64,000 nt of DNA from a plasmid, in the NCBI RefSeq assembly GCF_056712565.1, contig NZ_JBWXXM010000003.1, one strand, 5' to 3'. Under the pieces are notes generated by a model, which saw nothing but the letters and a program-made list of their open reading frames with translations, ran no database searches and was not told the origin of the DNA. Positions 5,168-34,929 of the stretch are shown one piece after another (the first letter of the stretch is position 1; each line of letters opens with the position of its first letter). Made by a program: the position numbers and the translations under genes.

Positions 5168-6076
5168 ATGACTTTGTCAATTAAAAATATAAAGCGCATT
5201 ATTACGGCCTGGAAACCATCTACATTCGAAACGTACAAAAAAACTTTTGAAAAATACGGTGGTAGTGTAAACATGCATCCGGATGTTGTTTCATACTTTA
5301 TGATACATCATGACTGGAAGTTTGATTTTTTTCACTATGAAAAAGATGGTGATATCAAAGGCTCATATTTTCTGTGCAATGGAAAACAAATTGGGATAAT
5401 GGCAAGAAGGTCTTATCCTCTTTCATCTGATGAGGTATTAATTCCTTTTTCCCCACATGCAAGATGTTTTTTTCCGGATAAAACTAATAAATTATCAATT
5501 ATAAATAAACAAAATATTATCAATGCAACATGGAAAATAGCCAGAAAAAAACAAAATTGTATTATAAAGGAATCTTTTTCACCTAAATTTGAAAAAACTC
5601 GCCGAAATGAAATCCAGCGATTTATCAGGAATGGCGGAGAGATTAAGTGTATAAGCAAGTTATCCGATAAAGAAATATCCAGCTCTTATATATCACTTTT
5701 TCATTCCCGGTTTGGAGGTACCCTACCTTGCTACGAATATGATAATCTGTTAATGTTTATTTCTCACTTACGAGAACTTATGTTTGGCCATGTGCTATTC
5801 TGGGATAATAAACCGTGTGCTATTGATATAGTACTGAAATCTGAAAGCTCATGTAATGTTTATTATGACGTTCCAAATGGTGCAGTTCTGAATGATGAGA
5901 ATTGCATGAAACTAAGTCCGGGAAGTGTCCTTATGTGGCTGAATATAGATAAAGCGCGAAGGTATTGTCAGGATAATAATAAAAAGATGATATATTCTAT
6001 CGGTGCATTCAGACCTGAATGGAAATATAAACTACTATGGTCTGTTCCCTGTAAGGTTGGTAAATGCTTATGTTAG
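5168..6076 (+). CDS. mig-14: Mig-14 family protein (antimicrobial peptide resistance associated)
   Basis: 302 aa AT-rich ORF immediately downstream of hlyF; recognised by position and sequence. Confidence 0.7.
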   Translation: MTLSIKNIKRIITAWKPSTFETYKKTFEKYGGSVNMHPDVVSYFMIHHDWKFDFFHYEKDGDIKGSYFLCNGKQIGIMARRSYPLSSDEVLIPFSPHARCFFPDKTNKLSIINKQNIINATWKIARKKQNCIIKESFSPKFEKTRRNEIQRFIRNGGEIKCISKLSDKEISSSYISLFHSRFGGTLPCYEYDNLLMFISHLRELMFGHVLFWDNKPCAIDIVLKSESSCNVYYDVPNGAVLNDENCMKLSPGSVLMWLNIDKARRYCQDNNKKMIYSIGAFRPEWKYKLLWSVPCKVGKCLC

Positions 6077-6758
6077 AATATGTATAAAGGTAAGTAACTA
6101 TATAAGAGCGTCCAGTCTGCAAATACTCCTCTAAACATGGAGGAGTAGATTTATAATATCATAACATTTACTAAATCGTTTTACATTAATTTCAAATTTG
6201 AAATTAATGTATTTTGATAACTATATATTTTTGATTCCGAAAACAGACATTTCTTTCTTTGAGTCAGGGCTTACACTCAAAATATTAATATTGTTTGTGT
6301 GAAGACATATTATTCAATAACGATGGTGAGAAATATCTGTACTTTTTCGCATAATCTAACCATTTACTTAATTGTTCATTCTGTGAACAGAATCTGTTTG
6401 TTATGTATCAGGTTGATGATGTGATTAAGCAGTCTGAAACCAGAGGAATATGGAGTCAGAAATTTTCAGTTGTCTTTTAAGGGCGTCTGCAGGATTTTTT
6501 CTCCGTTTCTGCCTGTCCTGGCATTACCCCAATTCTCCCAAAAACAGTAAACCAGCCCTCAGCCCGCACCATGACTGGCTTAAGACGGGATCCCAGCGGC
6601 AAAATGCGCCTTTACGTATTTGGTTTTACCCGCAATAATGCGTGATAATCAAACAAAAGGATCCGCGCGCTGCGATTTATTGTCGTGGAAGGATCCGGGC
6701 GTTCAGGTCAGAATACCTGTATCCATAAACAGTGCGTGTGCTACGTGAAAAATAACTC

Positions 6759-7499
6759 ATGAACAATGTCATTCCCCTGCAGAATTCACCAGAACGCGTC
6801 TCCCTGTTACCCATTGCGCCGGGGGTGGATTTTGCAACAGCGCTCTCCCTGAGAAGAATGGCCACTTCCACGGGGGCCACACCGGCCTACCTGCTGGCCC
6901 CGGAAGTGAGTGCCCTTCTTTTCTATATGCCGGATCAGCGTCACCATATGCTGTTCGCCACCCTCTGGAATACCGGAATGCGTATTGGCGAAGCCCGGAT
7001 GCTGACGCCGGAATCATTTGACCTGAATGGAGTAAGACCGTTTGTGCGGATCCTGTCCGAAAAAGTGCGTGCGCGACGCGGACGCCCGCCAAAAGATGAA
7101 GTGCGCCTGGTTCCGCTGACAGATATAAGCTATGTCAGGCAGATGGAAAGCTGGATGATCACCACCCGGCCCCGTCGTCGTGAACCATTATGGGCCGTGA
7201 CCGACGAAACCATGCGCAACTGGCTGAAGCAGGCTGTCAGACGGGCCGAAGCTGACGGAGTACACTTTTCGATTCCGGTCACACCACACACCTTCCGGCA
7301 CAGCTATATCATGCACATGCTCTATCACCGCCAGCCCCGGAAAGTCATCCAGGCACTGGCTGGTCACAGGGATCCACGTTCGATGGAGGTTTATACCAGA
7401 GTGTTTGCACTGGATATGGCTGCCACGCTGGCAGTGCCTTTCACAGGTGACGGGCGGGATGCTGCGGAGATCCTGCGTACACTGCCTCCCCTGAGGTGA
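6759..7499 (+). CDS. int: tyrosine site-specific recombinase/integrase adjacent to RepFIB replicon
   Basis: 246 aa with C-terminal catalytic region ...[14 protein letters not shown]...[14 protein letters not shown] (R..H..R..Y signature of tyrosine recombinases). Confidence 0.75.
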
Positions 7500-26632: not shown

Positions 26633-27019
26633 TGCTCATTTCCTCAAAAAATACAAGAAAAGAATTAGTATTCTAACAAAAAGTGAAATAAATTGTATCA
26701 AACTCCCTCTTTTAATCCTGTTGAGTAAATCAGCTTTTGCAATAGGATTGAAAGAGTGTAAGTGGAATCTCTTCCGGATACTCGTTACCACCGTGGCTAG
26801 AATATCTACGGCTGCGGGCCAGTAATAGATTAAGTGATAACAGCTGTCTGGAAATGTAGGGGCGTATCCACTAATCATAATCATTGTGAGATAAATATTA
26901 CGGGGCATTTTATAATGAATAAAATATACTCTCTAAAATATTGTCATATTACCAATACCATGAAGGTGATGCTGCCAACTTACTGATTTAGTGTATGATG
27001 GTGTTTTTGAGGTGCTCCA

Positions 27020-27295
27020 GTGGCTTCTGTTTCTATCAGCTGTCCCTCCTGTTCAGCTACTGACGGGGTGGTGCGTAACGGCAAAAGCACCGCCGGACAT
27101 CAGCGCTATCTCTGCTCTCACTGCCGTAAAACATGGCAACTGCAGTTCACTTACACCGCTTCTCAACCCGGTACGCACCAGAAAATCATTGATATGGCCA
27201 TGAATGGCGTTGGATGCCGGGTAACTGCCCGCATTATGGGCGTTGGCCTCAACACGATTTTACGTCACTTAAAAAACTCAGGCCGCAGTCGGTAA
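27020..27295 (+). CDS. insA: IS1 InsA
   Basis: 91 aa identical to copy 1 InsA. Confidence 0.95.
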
Positions 27296-27717
27296 CCTCG
27301 CGCATACAGCCGGGCAGTGATGTGATTGTCTGCGCTGAAATGGACGAACAGTGGGGCTATGTCGGGGCTAAATCGCGCCAGCGCTGGCTGTTTTACGCGT
27401 ATGACAGTCTCCGGAAGACGGTTGTTGCGCACGTATTCGGTGAACGCACTATGGCGACGCTGGGGCGTCTTATGAGCCTGCTGTCACCCTTTGACGTGGT
27501 GATATGGATGACGGATGGCTGGCCGCTGTATGAATCCCGCCTGAAGGGAAAGCTGCACGTAATCAGCAAGCGATATACGCAGCGAATTGAGCGGCATAAC
27601 CTGAATCTGAGGCAGCACCTGGCACGGCTGGGACGGAAGTCGCTGTCGTTCTCAAAATCGGTGGAGCTGCATGACAAAGTCATCGGGCATTATCTGAACA
27701 TAAAACACTATCAATAA
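27214..27717 (+). CDS. insB: IS1 InsB
   Basis: 167 aa identical to copy 1 InsB. Confidence 0.95.
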
Positions 27718-27727
27718 GTTGGAGTCA

Positions 27728-28402
27728 TTACCGTGCACGGTAACGGGCCATATCAATGAGCAGTTCCTCTCCAATTTTATTTGCCCCTAGAGAGCGGCGA
27801 GTTTTCTTCACTTCAATGACAATCTTCTCTTTCTTCAGAAGAAAATCCTGTCTGGATGATGAACCTGCGAAGCTAGGTGAATTTTCTTCAGGTCTGACAT
27901 CATTAAAATGCAGCAGCAGAAGAGCATGAACAAGATCCTGTACATCATACTCGTCATTAATTTCAAGCGGCGTTCTGTCATTGTATCGTTGCTTTAATTG
28001 ACGACAAAAAGCTGGAAATTTATTGAGTATATTTATAATCAAATCCAGTTCGGCATGTTTTGTTGCTATAGTCGATGCCGTGCCGGAGTAAGTTAAATCG
28101 TCTCTGGCTGCATCAAAAATAGGTTTGTAATGTCTAACCAATCCCTGATAATTACTAGACCAAGCAATCCTTTGTGTATCATTAAAATCTTTGTAGTAAT
28201 CAGATTCCTTTCCATAACTGTCTTCAAGTAACTTTTTTGCTCTTGCAATCCAGTTATTACCTTTAGCCGAATCAATATATTCCTGGCTTCTGTGACTAAA
28301 TGCACTTGTTCCCATATATTTTGTCGACATGACAGAATTGTACTCTTGTTCAAGCACTTCAAATCTTTCAGCTAAGGTCTTCTTCGTCATAGCGCAATCC
28401 AA
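27728..28402 (-). CDS. hypothetical protein with PD-(D/E)xK-like motif; C-terminus and stop codon supplied by IS1 end (probably 3'-truncated)
   Basis: 224 aa; C-terminal region ...LLLLHFNDVRPEE...(25 aa)...KIVIEVKK fits hhhD...hhhExK pattern; stop TAA lies inside IS1 terminal GGTAATGA. Confidence 0.5.
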   Translation of the reverse strand: MDCAMTKKTLAERFEVLEQEYNSVMSTKYMGTSAFSHRSQEYIDSAKGNNWIARAKKLLEDSYGKESDYYKDFNDTQRIAWSSNYQGLVRHYKPIFDAARDDLTYSGTASTIATKHAELDLIINILNKFPAFCRQLKQRYNDRTPLEINDEYDVQDLVHALLLLHFNDVRPEENSPSFAGSSSRQDFLLKKEKIVIEVKKTRRSLGANKIGEELLIDMARYRAR

Positions 28403-28559
28403 ATTATATGCTAATAATACCTGTGAATTTTAATATTCTACCATATCTGGCTTTCTTCCGTTCACATTGGACATTCAGGTAATTTCGTCCAGTTCTGCTG
28501 GCTGTGCTGGAGCTAGCCTGGTATAATTTAACCAGCCATTTCAACAGCGGTGGTGTCTT

Positions 28560-28754
28560 ATGAACGTCAAGAACATGTTTTACGGTGCCATTCTGGTAAG
28601 TGCTGTATGGGCGGTTATTTTGCTCTCATGGTTTGAATCCAGCCTTACCTTAAGCGATTACCTCAGGTACGAATCGGTAATCCTGATCCCATGCCTGCTG
28701 TGGGTTGCTGTTTATGGGTTAGGTAAACGTTACCTCCAAAGAACATCAAACTAG
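28560..28754 (+). CDS. hypothetical small membrane protein (64 aa, two predicted TM helices)
   Basis: MNVKNMFYGAILVSAVWAVILLSWFESSLTLSDYLRYESVILIPCLLWVAVYGLGKRY...; preceded by extended -10-like TGGTATAAT (~28521) and followed by hairpin TCCCTGGCT-CACCTGGAC-AGCCAGGGA. Confidence 0.4.
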   Translation: MNVKNMFYGAILVSAVWAVILLSWFESSLTLSDYLRYESVILIPCLLWVAVYGLGKRYLQRTSN

Positions 28755-28829
28755 CCGCGCCAGCGACTTTTTTTACACCTTCGTTTAATTCCCTGGCTCA
28801 CCTGGACAGCCAGGGAATTCTGCCCAGCG

Positions 28830-29309
28830 CTACTGGCTTGCTGTGCCAAACTTTCCGTTGCAGATTTCCTCATTCACAATGGCCTGAAACATGGAAACAG
28901 AATTTCTAGCCTTATCCCTCAGTGCATTAATGAGTTCTGTGTCGTGTATTTTGTTGTAGAAAATGAAAGTAGAAACATCAAACTGGAGTTTAAATGCTGC
29001 TTTCCTTATGGCTAAACCTGACGTGATCGTTATCTCATTATGTATGCGAAGATAGGCAAGATAATCATCGTTATTTGCTTCACACTGCTCATATAAATAT
29101 TTTTGCATGAGAGATTGAGACAAGGCCAGAAATTCCACATATCGTTTGGTTTTTATTTCTTTATCTTTTAATCCCTGTACTGCCGCTTCTTTTTTTAATT
29201 CGTGCTTTTGTGTTAGCTTAAGAGTCAGCCACCCCCCTAAAATAGTCAGCAACGACCCCAAACCTATTTTTACGGCATTATCAGCCACATCCACCCACTC
29301 AGTCGCCAT
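28830..29309 (-). CDS. hypothetical protein (159 aa) with N-terminal TM segment
   Basis: AT-rich ORF, N-terminal hydrophobic helix IGLGSLLTILGGWLTL; divergent from 29427-29876. Confidence 0.45.
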   Translation of the reverse strand: MATEWVDVADNAVKIGLGSLLTILGGWLTLKLTQKHELKKEAAVQGLKDKEIKTKRYVEFLALSQSLMQKYLYEQCEANNDDYLAYLRIHNEITITSGLAIRKAAFKLQFDVSTFIFYNKIHDTELINALRDKARNSVSMFQAIVNEEICNGKFGTASQ

Positions 29310-29426
29310 CTGTTACTCGTTCTTCCTGTGATGATCATGGTTGCCAGTATAATTCCAGCACAGACTGGACGTACAGCATTTTCTGTCCAGTAGACAGACT
29401 GTTACACTCAGGATAGGATAGCTTCT

Positions 29427-29876
29427 ATGGTTAAATTTCCAGGTGAAGTTATGAGTTCGTCCGCTGCTGTAACCGTTATAACTGGTGTTCTTGTTTTTGT
29501 TGGTGGTCAGCTCATTGTAAAGAGCGCGATTGAACCTTATATAGAATTCAAGAAACAATTGGGAAAAATATCAAATCTGCTATTAGCTAACCAAGCTAAA
29601 TTAGCTAATCCTTGTGCTGTTGAAATGTCTGAGATCATCCATGAGTTGAAAGATGCCGCAGCTCAGTTAATGTCGAAGCATTCAGCTTTGCCTTTCTATA
29701 TCAAAAAATTCCATATCGGATTCCGCTTTGTTCCATCAACGCCTGAAATTATTAGTTCGGCGCAAAAATTGAATTTGATAGCATCAATACATGAAGGTAA
29801 AAGCAAGGAAAGTACATATGAGCACATAGCCGAGATTGGACGTATGCTCAAAATCCCAACCACCTATTCTCTTTAA
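29427..29876 (+). CDS. hypothetical protein (149 aa) with N-terminal TM segment
   Basis: AT-rich ORF, hydrophobic VTVITGVLVFVGGQLIV; followed by hairpin plus T-tract terminator at ~29926-29957. Confidence 0.45.
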   Translation: MVKFPGEVMSSSAAVTVITGVLVFVGGQLIVKSAIEPYIEFKKQLGKISNLLLANQAKLANPCAVEMSEIIHELKDAAAQLMSKHSALPFYIKKFHIGFRFVPSTPEIISSAQKLNLIASIHEGKSKESTYEHIAEIGRMLKIPTTYSL

Positions 29877-30049
29877 TCTTCACGCCGATCAGATTACATA
29901 ATCCACGCGCCACCTGGACATTCAGGTAAAAAAGTCCAACTGGTGAGGTTGGGCTTTTTGGCTTTCCGGTTCTGTTGGTGGCTATGACCGGAGAAAATTG
30001 CTCTACACCTAACGCTTACATTTTATTTACAGCGTTTGATATCTTCCTC

Positions 30050-30094
30050 GCCTTTAACGCCTTTAACGCCTTTAACGCCTTTAACGCCTTTAAG
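30050..30094. repeat. 9-bp tandem repeat (GCCTTTAAC)x5
   Basis: GCCTTTAACGCCTTTAACGCCTTTAACGCCTTTAACGCCTTTAAG read directly. Confidence 0.9.
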
Positions 30095-30501
30095 GGGGGA
30101 AGATAGAGCAACTCACCGATGATGAATAAAGTGGACGAAGAGACGATAACTACACTCCCATCCAGGGGGGGGCTTTTTTTGTGGTACTGTAGTGTGGGAG
30201 TAAGTTCGGGTCTCATATTGAATGAGGCGATTGCGAGCTGCCTTTCATCGAAAACTAATGTCCATTGTCATTGTATTGTCTGACTCTATCTCGTAACAAG
30301 TCTTTGACACAAAGTTTTATATTTTTATCAAAGTGGACATGAGGGGAATTAAATTTGTGATCTTTTTCAAATAATGTGTTCTTGATAGTAGATTCTGGTT
30401 AGTGATATCTATTAACAATATATTAAATTTCTTTTGTATTATCGCTGATAAAACTACTGTATTGGTATACTATATATTATTGAGTAACAGGAGATATCAC
30501 T

Positions 30502-32004
30502 ATGAAGAAATTTTATCAATTTAGGGATGAACAGCGAAAGGAGCTTGAACAACATGATTTTTATAGTTTGATTTCTTCAGATTGTATAGCGTTGAAAGAT
30601 AAACTATTATTTGCTCCTGTTATGGCTCATTTCATAATGAACTTCAGAGACATGAATAAATGGGTTATCAGGTTTGATAACAATGATAATGAATATAAAT
30701 CTGTTATAAACGGTGGAACAATCGAGGATGAAACACATTCAAGATTGTTTCTGGAAGACTGGAGGAAACTATATATAGATGACAAACTTAACTGGAAAGC
30801 AAGTGATGTTATATACTGGTTGTTTATTAGTCGAGAAATGGAGTGTTTCCGAAAATTTGGTATTGATTTTATGAGACTTTGTGTAGATGATGGAGGAGAC
30901 CCAATACTTCGATATTCTCACTCCGAGTCAGGAGAAACTTGCGGTAATATATTCTTTTCAAGAATTAGTCCTATTGCTGATCAAGTTGCCAATCATTTGG
31001 GAATATCACTCCGTTATTTTGGAACATTTCACCTTAATCTTGAAAATGGACATGTATGGAAGTCAGAAGGTGTTTTTGAAAATATAGAGTTGTCACCAGA
31101 TTCTTATAAGAAAATGGCTACTCTATCAAAGAGAATGTTTGATATATTTGAAGGAATTCATGACTCTTTTTATAATTACCTGTCCAGTTATGTTCTTAAT
31201 GGAAGTCATCCGTCATTTTTTGAATCATTACCTGTAGGGAAAAATGTTGCACCTATATACCCTGAATTTGTGATAGAAAACAAAAGCCATAACGATGGTA
31301 GACATATTGAACATATAAACAATTACCTGGAAAAAATATCGAGTCATGAGTTCTTTAAATGGCTGGTTAACACCTCAATAGACCCTCAATTGAAATTGAA
31401 AAGTTTCATACCTCTTTGGATTGTTGATATTATGGGGTATAGAGATATTAATAAATATGTTTTTACATATGAACAGCCTGAATCAGAAAGTGAAAAGATT
31501 ATAAATGATTATGCATTACACTTGTCAGAGCATAGCCGTTTATTTTATCATGACTGGAAGTCACTTCAACTTGATGATATGTTACGTTGGAGTGCCAGTG
31601 ATACTCTTGAGTTTATTTTTCTTAATTCAGATATGGATATGCATAGAGAAAATATAGTTAAGTTTTCTTTGTTCGGATTAAAACACAGAGATCCTGTTAT
31701 CAGGTTCTGGTTTATGATGATACTGGAGTTAAGTGGAAAAGAATTTTTCTCTCATGTTGGAGATATAGCTTTACAGGTGGAAAGTAAATATAATATTTAT
31801 CTCCCATATTTATGTGGACGCCATGCAACAGAAAATGAGCATGAAGCATATAATAATATGTATGAGCATTTTATGGTAAAGGAACTTAGCCCTGAACAAA
31901 GTGATCTAATAATACAAATTACAGACATGGTTATGCGGTCATTATTGAATAATTTGGATATCTCATATCGATATGTAGTAAATAATTTATTGGCAGCTCG
32001 TTAG
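30502..32004 (+). CDS. hypothetical 500-aa protein with internal duplication, AT-rich
   Basis: ATG at 30502 with AGGAG RBS; internal repeats HSRLFLEDWRKLYIDDKLNWKASDVIYWLFISREMECF and HSRLFYHDWKSLQLDDMLRWSASDTLEFIFLNSDMDMH; terminator hairpin AAATCCCACTT-TTCA-GAGTGGGATTTGTTT at ~32040-32070. Confidence 0.6.
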   Translation: MKKFYQFRDEQRKELEQHDFYSLISSDCIALKDKLLFAPVMAHFIMNFRDMNKWVIRFDNNDNEYKSVINGGTIEDETHSRLFLEDWRKLYIDDKLNWKASDVIYWLFISREMECFRKFGIDFMRLCVDDGGDPILRYSHSESGETCGNIFFSRISPIADQVANHLGISLRYFGTFHLNLENGHVWKSEGVFENIELSPDSYKKMATLSKRMFDIFEGIHDSFYNYLSSYVLNGSHPSFFESLPVGKNVAPIYPEFVIENKSHNDGRHIEHINNYLEKISSHEFFKWLVNTSIDPQLKLKSFIPLWIVDIMGYRDINKYVFTYEQPESESEKIINDYALHLSEHSRLFYHDWKSLQLDDMLRWSASDTLEFIFLNSDMDMHRENIVKFSLFGLKHRDPVIRFWFMMILELSGKEFFSHVGDIALQVESKYNIYLPYLCGRHATENEHEAYNNMYEHFMVKELSPEQSDLIIQITDMVMRSLLNNLDISYRYVVNNLLAAR

Positions 32005-32789
32005 AAGAACAGCATTGGTATGACTCTGATGCTCCTTAAAATCCCACTTTTCAGAGTGGGATTTGTTTAATGCCCAGAACAGGGGGAATTTCCATTCATG
32101 CCCAAAAAATATTTTGATGTCCTCTCGCCAATTCTCGCGCTCAGTCCTTCCTGAAAAACCTCAGAATTCACGTAGCGCATCGCCGCTACTGCATCCATCA
32201 AAAAAAATGACAGCTTTTTTAATCATCTTGTGTTACTCAACTTACTGAAAAATGTGATTTATGAAAATGCCGCCGTCGGCATCAAGCAGTTGGCCAGCGC
32301 AACCGGCTGCATCGACCGCAACAAAAAAACTGAAAGAGAAAGCCCCTCAAATGAGGGAGAAAAAAAGGAAGTGCAGTCAACGAGAGGCGTAAAAAACCCG
32401 ACTGGTGAGGTCGGGTTTTAATACGGTTCCGGTTCTGAGTTGGTGGCTCTGACCGGAGGAAGTCACTCTACACCTAACGTTTACATTTTATGCACTCAGC
32501 CGCAGTATTGCAACTAACTGTGGTTAAGGCACCACATTTAGTTGTGTATCGTGGGTTTTATATACCTTATAATCATGAAGTTAGCCGTGTGGTGTGGCTT
32601 CTTCCTCTGCCCTTCCCGTTTATGCAGGTATGAACGATTTTAAAGTCCTGGCTGAACAAACAGGTGGTGCTGTGTTTAGTGCTCTGGCAGGAGGAAGTCA
32701 CTCTGCACCTAACAATGCGAGAGAACCGTTGTGACAGGCAGTGTAAGAGCAAGCAACGGTGATTTCCTCCAGTTTTACTGGAGAAACGG

Positions 32790-32885
32790 ATGATTAATCT
32801 GTTAATCATCGTTCTCAGGGCTGTGGTCGCCGTTGCAAACGCGCTGATTGCAATTCTGGAACTGATTCGCCAGTTCATCGACTGA
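32790..32885 (+). CDS. putative small hydrophobic toxin peptide (31 aa), DinQ/TisB-like, copy 1
   Basis: MINLLIIVLRAVVAVANALIAILELIRQFID; GGAG RBS; start codon inside perfect inverted repeat GATGATTAA-TCTG-TTAATCATC; coordinates approximate. Confidence 0.45.
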   Translation: MINLLIIVLRAVVAVANALIAILELIRQFID

Positions 32886-33707
32886 TGACAGCGGAAACGT
32901 AACTAAGGACAGGAAGTGAACCGCTTCCTGCCCTTTAACGTACTGTGATATTTTTCAAAAAAACTCACCAATATTCTCCTCGGCAGAAATGACATAACTC
33001 ACTGTAAAATAACAAATCATCTAAACGCCAGCTTTGTATTGAGCGCGTTGGCCAACGCCTTTATCAGCTGCGACCGCACCAGATAATTTGAATAAGATTT
33101 CCCGCATCACCTGGACATACAGGTTATTCTGTCCATACCTCATTAGTTACAACATTCACGCGTTCTGTTCCTTTATCCGGTGCCCTGTTCCAGTATATGT
33201 GCCCATATCCTGGGTTATTCAGGATAACCGCTTCCTTTTCGCCCTGTCCTGTCGTTCATATCCCCCTGGACAAAAATGCATTATCGGAAAAAATGTCCAA
33301 AATTTTTTTGGTGATCGGAATTTTTGTTGTCGGACGCACCTCTTCTTCAGGTCATAATTGCTGACACATCCCAAAAAACAGGAGCGGAGATTTAAAAATT
33401 GAGTCACTTACCCGCCAAAATTTTCCAGATTTCACGTAGCGTACCGTCGATACTGTATCCATCAACAAATGACTATTTTTTGAATGTGTCATTTCCTGTA
33501 ACCTACTGAAAAATATCAGTGAATGACAATATCGGCGACAGCATCGGAGCTGATAGCCAGTTTCCTGAATGCATATGGCCAGAACAGTAAATTTGAACCA
33601 GGTTCTCACGTCACCAGGCGACGTGTCTGGGAAACTGGTGAACAACAGGCACAGAAAAGCCCAACTTTATGGGGGTCAGTTCAGTGAGGTTGGGCTAAGA
33701 GAAACGA

Positions 33708-33803
33708 ATGATTAACCTGTTAATCATCATTCTCAGGGATGTGGTCGCCGTTGCAAACGCGCGGATTGCAGTTCTGGAACTGATTCGCCAGTTCATCGTT
33801 TGA
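33708..33803 (+). CDS. putative small hydrophobic toxin peptide (31 aa), DinQ/TisB-like, copy 2
   Basis: MINLLIIILRDVVAVANARIAVLELIRQFIV; same start-codon inverted repeat ATGATTAA-CCTG-TTAATCAT; coordinates approximate. Confidence 0.4.
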   Translation: MINLLIIILRDVVAVANARIAVLELIRQFIV

Positions 33804-34028
33804 TGACAGCGGAAACGTAACTCAGGACAGGAAGTTCCAAATAGCTCCCAGCCAGCATATGTAATTTTCAAAGGGGCAGTTGTTAACTCTGTAATAACGC
33901 CATGTAAAGTATTCCTGCCCCCTCCATGATCCTCCATAGTATTTCTTGAGTTAATTTTCAAAAAGCTTCTGATGGTGATGCTGCCAACTTACTGATTTAG
34001 TGTATGATGGTGTTTTTGAGGTGCTCCA

Positions 34029-34304
34029 GTGGCTTCTGTTTCTATCAGCTGTCCCTCCTGTTCAGCTACTGACGGGGTGGTGCGTAACGACAAAAGCACC
34101 ACCGGACATCAGCGCTATCTCTGCTCTCACTGCCGTAAAACATGGCAACTGCAGTTCACTTACACCGCTTCTCAACCCGGTACGCACCAGAAAATCATTG
34201 ATATGGCCATGAATGGCGTTGGATGCCGGGCAACTGCCCGCATTATGGGCGTTGGCCTCAACACGATTTTACGTCACTTAAAAAACTCAGGCCGCAGTCG
34301 GTAA
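34029..34304 (+). CDS. insA: IS1 InsA
   Basis: 91 aa. Confidence 0.95.
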
Positions 34305-34726
34305 CCTCGCGCATACAGCCGGGCAGTGACGTCATCGTCTGCGCGGAAATGGACGAACAGTGGGGCTATGTCGGGGCTAAATCGCGCCAGCGCTGGCTGT
34401 TTTACGCGTATGACAGTCTCCGGAAGACGGTTGTTGCGCACGTATTCGGTGAACGCACTATGGCGACGCTGGGGCGTCTTATGAGCCTGCTGTCACCCTT
34501 TGACGTGGTGATATGGATGACGGATGGCTGGCCGCTGTATGAATCCCGCCTGAAGGGAAAGCTGCACGTAATCAGCAAGCGATATACGCAGCGAATTGAG
34601 CGGCATAACCTGAATCTGAGGCAGCACCTGGCACGGCTGGGACGGAAGTCGCTGTCGTTTTCAAAATCGGTGGAGCTGCATGACAAAGTCATCGGGCATT
34701 ATCTGAACATAAAACACTATCAATAA
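34223..34726 (+). CDS. insB: IS1 InsB
   Basis: 167 aa. Confidence 0.95.
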
Positions 34727-34929
34727 GTTGGAGTCATTACCGCCTTGACCATCAGATAGTTATTTTGGTGCTAGGGATACTGAGTGTGAACAGTTAGCGC
34801 GCGTCCTCGCCAGTTAGCTCGCTACGCTCGGTTACACGACGGCTACGAGTACTAGTGATAATTATTGACTGAGGTATGTGCTCTTCCTGTTTCCTTTTTT
34901 GATGTGTTGCTCTCATTTTAAACAACTTT

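Follow-up and report, generated by a model that had tools for sequence, protein, structure and literature searches.

The stretch of DNA analysed here, a 64-kb window on contig NZ_JBWXXM010000003.1, belongs to a ColV/pS88-type IncFIB virulence plasmid of Escherichia coli, with identity of up to 100% to pECCH138-1, pS88 and similar plasmids. It contains several copies of an interrupted palindrome, TGGAC-N14-GTCCA (TGGACNNNNNNNNNNNNNNGTCCA), which are confined to a 6.2-kb island (27.7–34 kb) located between sitABCD and sopAB and bracketed by two directly oriented copies of IS1. The island contains a truncated restriction-endonuclease-like gene, a membrane-type open reading frame (ORF) of 64 amino acids (aa), a 159-aa ORF on the minus strand, a 149-aa ORF, a 500-aa ORF and two dqlB genes; no regulator gene was found in it. 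It is 82–100% identical to the variable region of IncX plasmids, which has topB/hha/hns on one side and, on the other, a tyrosine recombinase gene with a parA-like gene after it, and in which the same cassettes precede the recombinase gene. Judged by this identity, the island is a piece of an IncX variable region, and the repeated motif very probably represents the core recombination sites of an IncX-encoded ResD-family tyrosine recombinase, delimiting mobile cassettes.

A pattern scan of the window gave four exact matches to the motif, at 28468–28491, 29366–29389, 29915–29938 and 33112–33135, with the same coordinates and sequences as those reported by the initial annotation. The number expected by chance was 0.11 (standard deviation 0.31, maximum 1) and none of 100 dinucleotide-preserving shuffles of the window reached four, which bears out the view taken there that such a set is very unlikely to be fortuitous. 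That annotation had also allowed for further copies, and a mismatch-tolerant scan of the window revealed one that it had missed, with a single mismatch, at 28803–28826 (TGGACAGCCAGGGAATTCTGCCCA). The inner 14 nt, described at first as a partly conserved core, are indeed conserved among the window copies but also asymmetric (..T.CAGG.AAT..), giving the motif a polarity that is identical in all five copies. Upstream of the core, conservation continues for approximately 16 nt to a TAATTCC box. A 24-mer weight matrix trained on related sites scored at least 25 at these five copies only in the window, with the next best positions scoring 12–14.

With the apparent junction described below marked as ^, the five core sites, all on the plus strand, read TGGACATTCAGGTAA^TTTCGTCCA (site 1, 28468–28491), TGGACAGCCAGGGAA^TTCTGCCCA (site 2, 28803–28826), TGGACGTACAGCATT^TTCTGTCCA (site 3, 29366–29389), TGGACATTCAGGTAA^AAAAGTCCA (site 4, 29915–29938) and TGGACATACAGGTTA^TTCTGTCCA (site 5, the last or platform site, 33112–33135, 287 bp upstream of the recombinase start). 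The copies had been assigned to intergenic or promoter positions, of which the first part stands, as all five lie between ORFs. The second does not hold throughout: the copies at 28468 and 29366 are between divergent genes, but that at 28803 is between two convergent ORFs and that at 29915 is 3′ of a gene, so that neither of the latter two is in a promoter position.

As single strands, four of the five copies fold weakly (−3 to −6 kcal/mol, z-scores of −0.8 to −2.2), which argues against an attC-like single-stranded substrate. The exception is the copy at 28787–28832, the only one in which base pairing of the core centre with the TAATTCC-type box upstream of it gives a 12-bp hairpin (−12 kcal/mol, z = −3.5). 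The hairpin is located between the convergent genes and may also act as a bidirectional terminator. It should also be noted that the consensus box TAATTCC approximates the reverse complement of core positions 12–18 (GGTAATT).

Sites and cassettes in related plasmids

To place these copies in context, a comparison set of 17 loci (417 kb, window included) was scanned with the same weight matrix. Of the sites found, 69 were on one strand and a single one on the other, and the arrays that they form range from 1 to 9 sites. When the loci were cut at the sites and the intervening segments clustered by BLAST, 29 cassette families were obtained, each of fixed length (563 bp for A, 905 bp for C, 335–337 bp for D and 451 bp for E) but variable in order and neighbours, the number of contexts being six for A, five for C and four for both B and D. 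The arrays read D-A-B-F in the window, A-B-F in L004, D in L005, K-I-A-J in L008, E-G-L-B in L010, A-N-D-C-O-M in L011, E-P in L012, Q-C-D-A in L013, H-C-E-A-R-S in L014, B in L015, T-U in L016, E-G in L017, F-W-B-V in L018, H-C-Z-a-b-c-X-Y in L019 and C in L020, with L007 and L009 holding a single site and no cassette. B and F do not keep the same order in all plasmids, F coming after B in the window and L004 and upstream of B, with W intervening, in L018.

The sites also coincide with the limits of similarity between plasmids. A megablast search of 28400–29960 against complete E. coli genomes returned many partial matches in plasmids of 30–77 kb which begin and stop at sites, for example 28467–28827, 28788–29388 and 29349–29927 in window coordinates, plus a 41-bp match spanning one site. 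The region around the platform site (32900–33445) was found by megablast in 896 plasmids of PLSDB, from Escherichia, Salmonella, Klebsiella, Enterobacter, Shigella, Citrobacter and Morganella, and among the matches listed most of the partial ones begin at the left edge of the core, stop at its right edge or begin inside its centre. Two IncX4 loci, L005 and L007, have flanks that are 99.5–99.8% identical, and the 337 bp from site to site (cassette D) are present in L005 and precisely absent from L007, the single site of L007 being composed of the left part of the first L005 site and the right part of the second. Such an indel is the signature of conservative site-specific recombination.

Most cassettes hold one gene, and the genes lie on both strands (minus in A, C, E, K, L and M; plus in B, D and F), with the cassette genes seeming to carry their own promoters. 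Cargo was assigned from PADLOC, sequence reading and record annotations. Cassette O encodes AbiD (PADLOC, 8.5e-61) and cassette C an Argonaute-associated-type restriction endonuclease (PADLOC, 8e-29), of which M is a sequence paralogue, while the proteins of cassettes K and L, for which there was no database match, contain an R-x4-H motif that may be read as HEPN-like. Toxin-antitoxin cargo comprises HigB/HigA (X), a MazF-like toxin (U), a RelB/DinJ-like protein (R) and dqlB (F), and many other cassettes encode small membrane proteins without assigned function.

With the truncated gene at 27728–28402 recognised as a remnant of cassette C, the window array reads (C)-D-A-B-F. This remnant (27728–28482, minus strand) retains a 224-aa ORF of the restriction-endonuclease-like gene, cut short by IS1, which matches Aga_Helical-REase of PADLOC at 4e-23 and phrog_29450 at 2e-39; the intact 905-bp cassette encodes 263–267 aa and is found at full length, with the common 3′ end tttcttccgttcacatTGGACATTCAGGTAA, in L011, L013, L014, L019 and L020. 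Cassette D (28483–28817, plus strand, 335 bp), which is the sole cassette of L005, carries the 64-aa membrane-type ORF at 28560–28754. Cassette A (28818–29380, minus strand) carries the 159-aa ORF at 28830–29309, and its six copies, all of 563 bp and 94–99.6% identical, have six different sets of neighbours. Cassette B (29381–29929, plus strand, 549 bp; five copies) carries the 149-aa ORF at 29427–29876, which matches phrog_7512 at 4e-60. Cassette F (29930–33126, plus strand, 3197 bp; three copies of 3164–3197 bp) contains a 9-bp tandem repeat, the 500-aa ORF at 30502–32004 and the type I toxin gene dqlB at 32790–32885. The AT-rich 500-aa ORF had no match in NCBIfam, PADLOC or PHROGs, and its DNA is 97–99% identical within cassette F of IncX plasmids.

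Some further features of these cassettes were recorded. The 9-bp unit of cassette F, CCTTTAACG, is present in about five tandem copies at 30052–30095 in the non-coding start of the cassette, with a related copy at 32924–32940. A repeat of approximately 48 nt (GGTTCTG.GTTGGTGGCTCTGACCGGAGGAAGTCACTCTACACCTAAC) is located at 29966–30013, 32431–32478 and 32666–32713, near dqlB and the start of cassette F, with copies 75–81% identical, and may be an antisense-RNA or 5′ untranslated region repeat of a DinQ-like type I toxin-antitoxin system. The P1-like phage-plasmid D6 (L024) has a gene homologous to that of cassette B (65% aa identity), and a decayed sequence just upstream of it, TGGCCATTTAAATGATTCCTCCCA at D6 positions 5940–5963, is a core-site remnant at most (matrix score 7.1); cassette B may have reached this phage-plasmid along with its site.

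Outside these plasmids, a scan of species-representative genomes for the consensus site, in a collection poor in IncX plasmids, returned two loci only, on an Erwinia persicina contig and on a Pantoea contig, each with an array of four to five co-oriented sites. On the Erwinia contig, a ResD-like gene of 41% identity is located near the array. The Pantoea array adjoins parA/parB-like genes, one of its products is a partial homologue of the protein from cassette B, and the left flank of one of its sites matches the 3′ end of cassette E.

Site anatomy and the apparent junction

The logo of 62 unique sites reads c-TGGACAT(T/A)CAGGT-N-ATTCTGTCCA-g, with position 14 carrying no information, and a separate TAATTCC box is located at −16 to −10. 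This box was not used by the weight matrix, and its conservation is thus independent evidence. On one reading of the core, an asymmetric centre of 6 bp (AGGTNA, positions 10–15) is flanked by inverted arms of 9 bp each (TGGACATWC and TTCTGTCCA), and it would be the centre that sets the polarity.

The position of exchange within the core was approached by comparing pairs of sites that share one flank only. In pairs sharing the left flank, the core mismatches fell at positions 16–24 in 55 of 68 cases, and in pairs sharing the right flank they fell at positions 1–15 in 164 of 184 (Fisher p = 4e-26, to be taken as descriptive only as the pairs are not independent). This pattern places the apparent junction between core positions 15 and 16, at TGGACATWCAGGTNA^TTCTGTCCA. 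Every cassette accordingly begins with TTCTGTCCA and finishes with TAATTCC-N9-TGGACATWCAGGTNA.

If the core is built of arms and centre as proposed, 15|16 would be one of the two expected cleavage positions. Junctions at the other, 9|10, are almost absent despite differing centres, which suggests that the reaction is asymmetric. It would follow either that one strand pair alone is productively exchanged, as in integrons, or that the model of arms and centre needs revision.

The linked ResD-like recombinase gene

The recombinase gene lies 3′ of the array and is co-directional with it. In IncX4 plasmids it encodes a tyrosine recombinase of 271–274 aa with 46% identity to ResD of the F plasmid (E = 9e-61). 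The only domain recognised by Pfam in the IncX recombinase was the Phage_integrase catalytic domain, and the NCBIfam Xer and integron-integrase models gave weak matches far below their cutoffs. The protein also has approximately 44–47% identity to those encoded in thousands of enterobacterial plasmids under the annotation resD or resolvase, and on the strength of this homology it is taken to be a ResD-family enzyme. In 15 of the 17 loci, including the window, the last site of the array precedes the start of the recombinase gene, or of what remains of it, by 287–290 bp. The same spacing (~290 bp) and orientation were found in the IncX4 plasmids fetched, and the simplest IncX4 state consists of one such site upstream of the recombinase gene, next to partition genes.

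Between the platform site and the recombinase gene lies a conserved leader (33136–33398, plus strand), as defined by alignment of the 17 loci and a spacing scan. The latter detected the core half-sites again at 21-nt spacing, CTGGACAAAAATGCATTATCGGAAAAAATGTCCA (CTGGACA-N21-TGTCCA, 33266–33300), approximately 100 bp upstream of the recombinase start. This arrangement is invariant in 15 aligned loci with variable surroundings and could be an accessory or autoregulatory binding site. The leader has a second conserved palindrome, ATCCTGGGTTATTCAGGAT, at approximately 33207–33225.

The window retains codons 1–14 of the recombinase gene (LSHLPAKIFQISRS; 33399–33440, plus strand; 93% identity by tblastn over residues 1–14 only). 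The remainder, intact in parental IncX4 plasmids, is missing, and its place is taken by the second dqlB type I toxin gene (33708–33803, plus strand; from the annotation of an identical plasmid and the ORF list). Alignment showed the break, after CACGTAGCG, to be at the same point in the window and in IncX1 plasmids. In the IncX1 loci (L010, L012 and L017–L020) the recombinase is likewise cut to 14 codons and a serine resolvase gene is located nearby on the opposite strand; in the IncX1 plasmids fetched, the truncated gene is followed by dinQ and the serine resolvase gene. A string corresponding to codons 10–14 of the IncX recombinase, (A)TTCACGTAGCG, was found at 33432–33442 and 32168–32178 of the window and at 7458–7470 of L005. 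It recurs at the upstream end of each dqlB/dinQ toxin module, which is the exact break point of the recombinase in the window and in IncX1, and this suggests a second recurrent recombination or insertion point at which the recombinase is swapped for a type I toxin module.

At the edges of the island, the left IS1 (26965–27732, plus strand, 768 bp, with its terminal repeat at 26965 and annotated as IS1A in identical plasmids) cuts cassette C, and the right IS1 (33974–34741, plus strand) has the same orientation. A composite IS1 transposon was considered and rejected, as matching target duplications were not found outside the two copies, and so was a phage origin, the phage collection having matched IS1 only. 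The ColV plasmid also has a ResD-like gene of its own (6759–7499), 47% identical to F ResD. A palindrome approximately 35 bp upstream of this gene, TTCAGGTCAGAATACCTGTATCC (6702–6724), is unique in the window and is a candidate resolution site for it; it has the string TTCAGGT in common with the IncX core. That the island sites are worked by this gene was rejected, its product being only 41% identical to the IncX enzyme (blastp; 42% by tblastn); no evidence was seen that it recognises the island sites, and the palindrome TTCAGGTCAGAATACCTGTATCC differs from the island core.

Interpretation and comparison with known systems

Of the two readings that the initial annotation had offered, that of recombination sites at module boundaries has strong support from the coincident breakpoints, the shuffling of cassettes, the site-to-site indel and the linked ResD-like gene. 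ResD resolves multimers of the F plasmid at rfsF, and by homology the single site of IncX4 plasmids presumably resolves plasmid multimers too. The same reaction also appears to integrate, excise or swap small DNA circles, or to exchange segments between co-resident plasmids, and the outcome would be an array of directly repeated sites with one self-contained cassette for each pair of sites. The fragment (C)-D-A-B-F would then have been inherited from an IncX plasmid and bracketed by IS1 in the ColV virulence plasmid. As only the first 14 recombinase codons remain, the window array is probably an orphan fossil, and unless the enzyme comes in trans from an IncX4 plasmid, its sites are probably scars without activity.

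Several observations weigh against this reading. From sequence, linkage and homology we infer, rather than observe, that the IncX recombinase acts on the sites. Long arrays, of as many as 9 sites, are found in IncX1 plasmids and the window although the tyrosine recombinase is no longer intact there, so that arrays can persist, and perhaps change, without the recombinase in cis, and in Erwinia the recombinase homologue is in the opposite orientation to the array. The centres of the sites differ (CAGGTAA, CAGCATT and CAGGGAA), which classical tyrosine recombination would tolerate poorly, and a single sharp junction is unlike two-strand exchange with heterologous overlaps; it may reflect a one-strand exchange resolved by replication, or the model of arms and overlap may be wrong. 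Finally, the weight matrix scored nothing of at least 8 at coordinates 40–54 kb of the F plasmid (pifC-ccd-resD-repE), which points to a different specificity rather than to the lack of an analogous site. The site is therefore not to be equated with rfsF by sequence, the comparison having been made with this region of F.

Part of this evidence would also suit an intergenic element conserved as, for instance, a terminator or promoter module, with the mosaic arising from ordinary homologous or short-homology recombination and no dedicated recombinase. Recombination between repeats of 24–40 bp could yield precise indels like that between L005 and L007, the arrays of IncX1 plasmids and the window persist without the tyrosine recombinase, and the copy at 28787–28832 forms a strong hairpin between convergent genes. 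Such an origin is nonetheless improbable, as the junction is sharp at 15|16 and not spread across the repeat, the polarity is almost uniform (69 to 1), the core has a recombinase-like anatomy of inverted arms around an asymmetric centre, and the terminal site keeps a fixed distance from the ResD-like gene. It would also leave unexplained how each unrelated cassette came by its flanking copy, and most copies fold only weakly as single strands.

The other reading offered initially, a set of operators through which a dimeric DNA-binding regulator co-regulates the flanking genes, drew on the palindromic half-sites, their fixed spacing and their intergenic location, and the copies at 28468 and 29366 between divergent genes would agree with it. 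It has become very unlikely: two of the five copies (28803 and 29915) are at gene 3′ ends, the polarity tracks the array and not the orientation of the genes, which lie on both strands, promoter-like sites near the copies are not enriched (17 found against 15.8 expected), the island lacks a regulator gene, and regulation would explain neither the breakpoints nor the shuffling of cassettes. The D protein of F (ResD) is reported to repress transcription besides resolving multimers, and by analogy binding of the recombinase at the platform site and at CTGGACA-N21-TGTCCA could autoregulate its own gene as a secondary role.

The E. coli dif site, GGTGCGCATAATGTATATTATGTTAAAT, has an 11-6-11 arrangement. 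That the sites are substrates of host XerC/XerD, like the pdif modules of Acinetobacter plasmids or cer-type sites, is suggested by the resemblance to pdif modules of plasmid modules flanked by short recombinase-type sites (see, for example, PMC5790767), but is scarcely credible given that the core is unlike dif (by direct reading, not alignment), that the sites are all direct repeats whereas pdif sites alternate in orientation, and that a dedicated recombinase gene is linked to the array. Other identities were set aside as follows: a sigma-70, extracytoplasmic function or sigma-54 promoter, as TGGACA taken as a −35 element had no usable −10 at 16–18 nt in any copy and the promoter scan was unenriched; a LexA box, considered because of the dinQ-like toxin genes nearby, as CTGT-N8-ACAG is absent from the sites; a single-stranded hairpin (attC-like, single-stranded DNA promoter or terminator), as folding is weak except for the copy at 28787–28832; and Xer/dif, integron attC, shufflon or invertase sites, as no likeness in sequence was seen on direct reading.

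A wider proposal, to which we give an even chance, is that IncX plasmids and their Erwinia and Pantoea relatives carry a previously unrecognised, integron-independent cassette system. In it a ResD-type resolvase would use its own resolution site as a docking platform and would capture and reshuffle single-gene cassettes, many of them for abortive infection, nucleases or toxin-antitoxin systems. The crossover would be asymmetric and fixed in position, and might consist of the exchange of a single strand with replication, as in integrons, completing the process; the orphan arrays, that of the window included, would be the fossils of this system. IncX plasmids are major carriers of mcr-1, blaNDM and blaCTX-M, and the mosaic of their variable region has hitherto gone without explanation. 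If a resolvase does double as a cassette integrase, integron-like capture of genes would have evolved a second time and independently, the movement of small defence and addiction genes among IncX, IncF and phage-plasmid backbones would be explained, and a compact recombinase with a 24-bp site would become available to genetic engineering. With a junction that is sharp and single, a specific and unusual mechanism of strand exchange becomes directly testable. For the window alone the result is more modest, the motif representing the scars of a cassette system that is probably inactive there.

Among known systems, ResD/rfsF of F and the resD/rsd genes of IncI1, IncR, IncFII and Salmonella virulence plasmids come with a similarly short enzyme (274 aa in IncX against 268 in F ResD), and the IncX recombinase likewise lies beside plasmid maintenance genes with a cis site just upstream. 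The recombinase gene itself is present in parental IncX4 plasmids but not in the window copy, with its 14 codons. The IncX arrangement differs in having arrays of as many as 9 sites in direct repetition, separated by single-gene cassettes of 0.25–3 kb. Site-specific exchange of large segments by IncI1, IncR and IncFII plasmids has been proposed to take place at rfsF/ResD (PMC8004404, PMC9412624), and a study of IncX4 describes "variable regions" with no mention of a recombinase, resolvase or integrase (PMC5428312). Multi-site cassette arrays at ResD-type sites, the motif string in this context, and descriptions of IncX cassettes, resolvases or hotspots were not found in a literature search for which subscription journals were mostly outside the scope.

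The likeness to integrons lies in the reserved platform site next to a tyrosine recombinase gene, the array of co-oriented sites (69 to 1) with mostly single-gene cassettes (29 families) whose order varies between elements, and the sharp single junction, which leaves most of the site at the 3′ end of a cassette and a short stub starting with TT at its 5′ end. The orphan arrays of IncX1 plasmids and the window resemble CALINs, the attC clusters without an integrase. However, the IncX recombinase fails the integron-integrase models (TIGR02249, 54.7 bits against a cutoff of 265; PRK15417, 39 against 435), the match covering the shared catalytic motifs only and not the IntI-specific extra domain. 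The sites also differ, with cores of 24–26 bp and a 7-bp box here against attC hairpins of 55–140 bp with R″/L″/L′/R′ boxes, and no GTTRRRY/RYYYAAC pair was seen in the core on direct reading. Genes lie on both strands here, whereas integron cassettes are mostly promoterless, co-oriented and read from a platform promoter, and the recombinase gene is downstream and co-directional, in contrast to the integron integrase gene, which is divergent from its array.

The pdif modules are similar in being small, often with toxin-antitoxin or resistance genes, bounded by short tyrosine-recombinase sites and found in varied plasmid contexts. They differ in that pdif sites are dif-like, alternating and served by host XerCD, while the sites described here are unrelated to dif, all direct and linked to a plasmid-encoded ResD-type enzyme. 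What is known already is the enzyme family and the notion of exchange mediated by rfsF; the organisation into cassette arrays and the asymmetric junction appear to be new.

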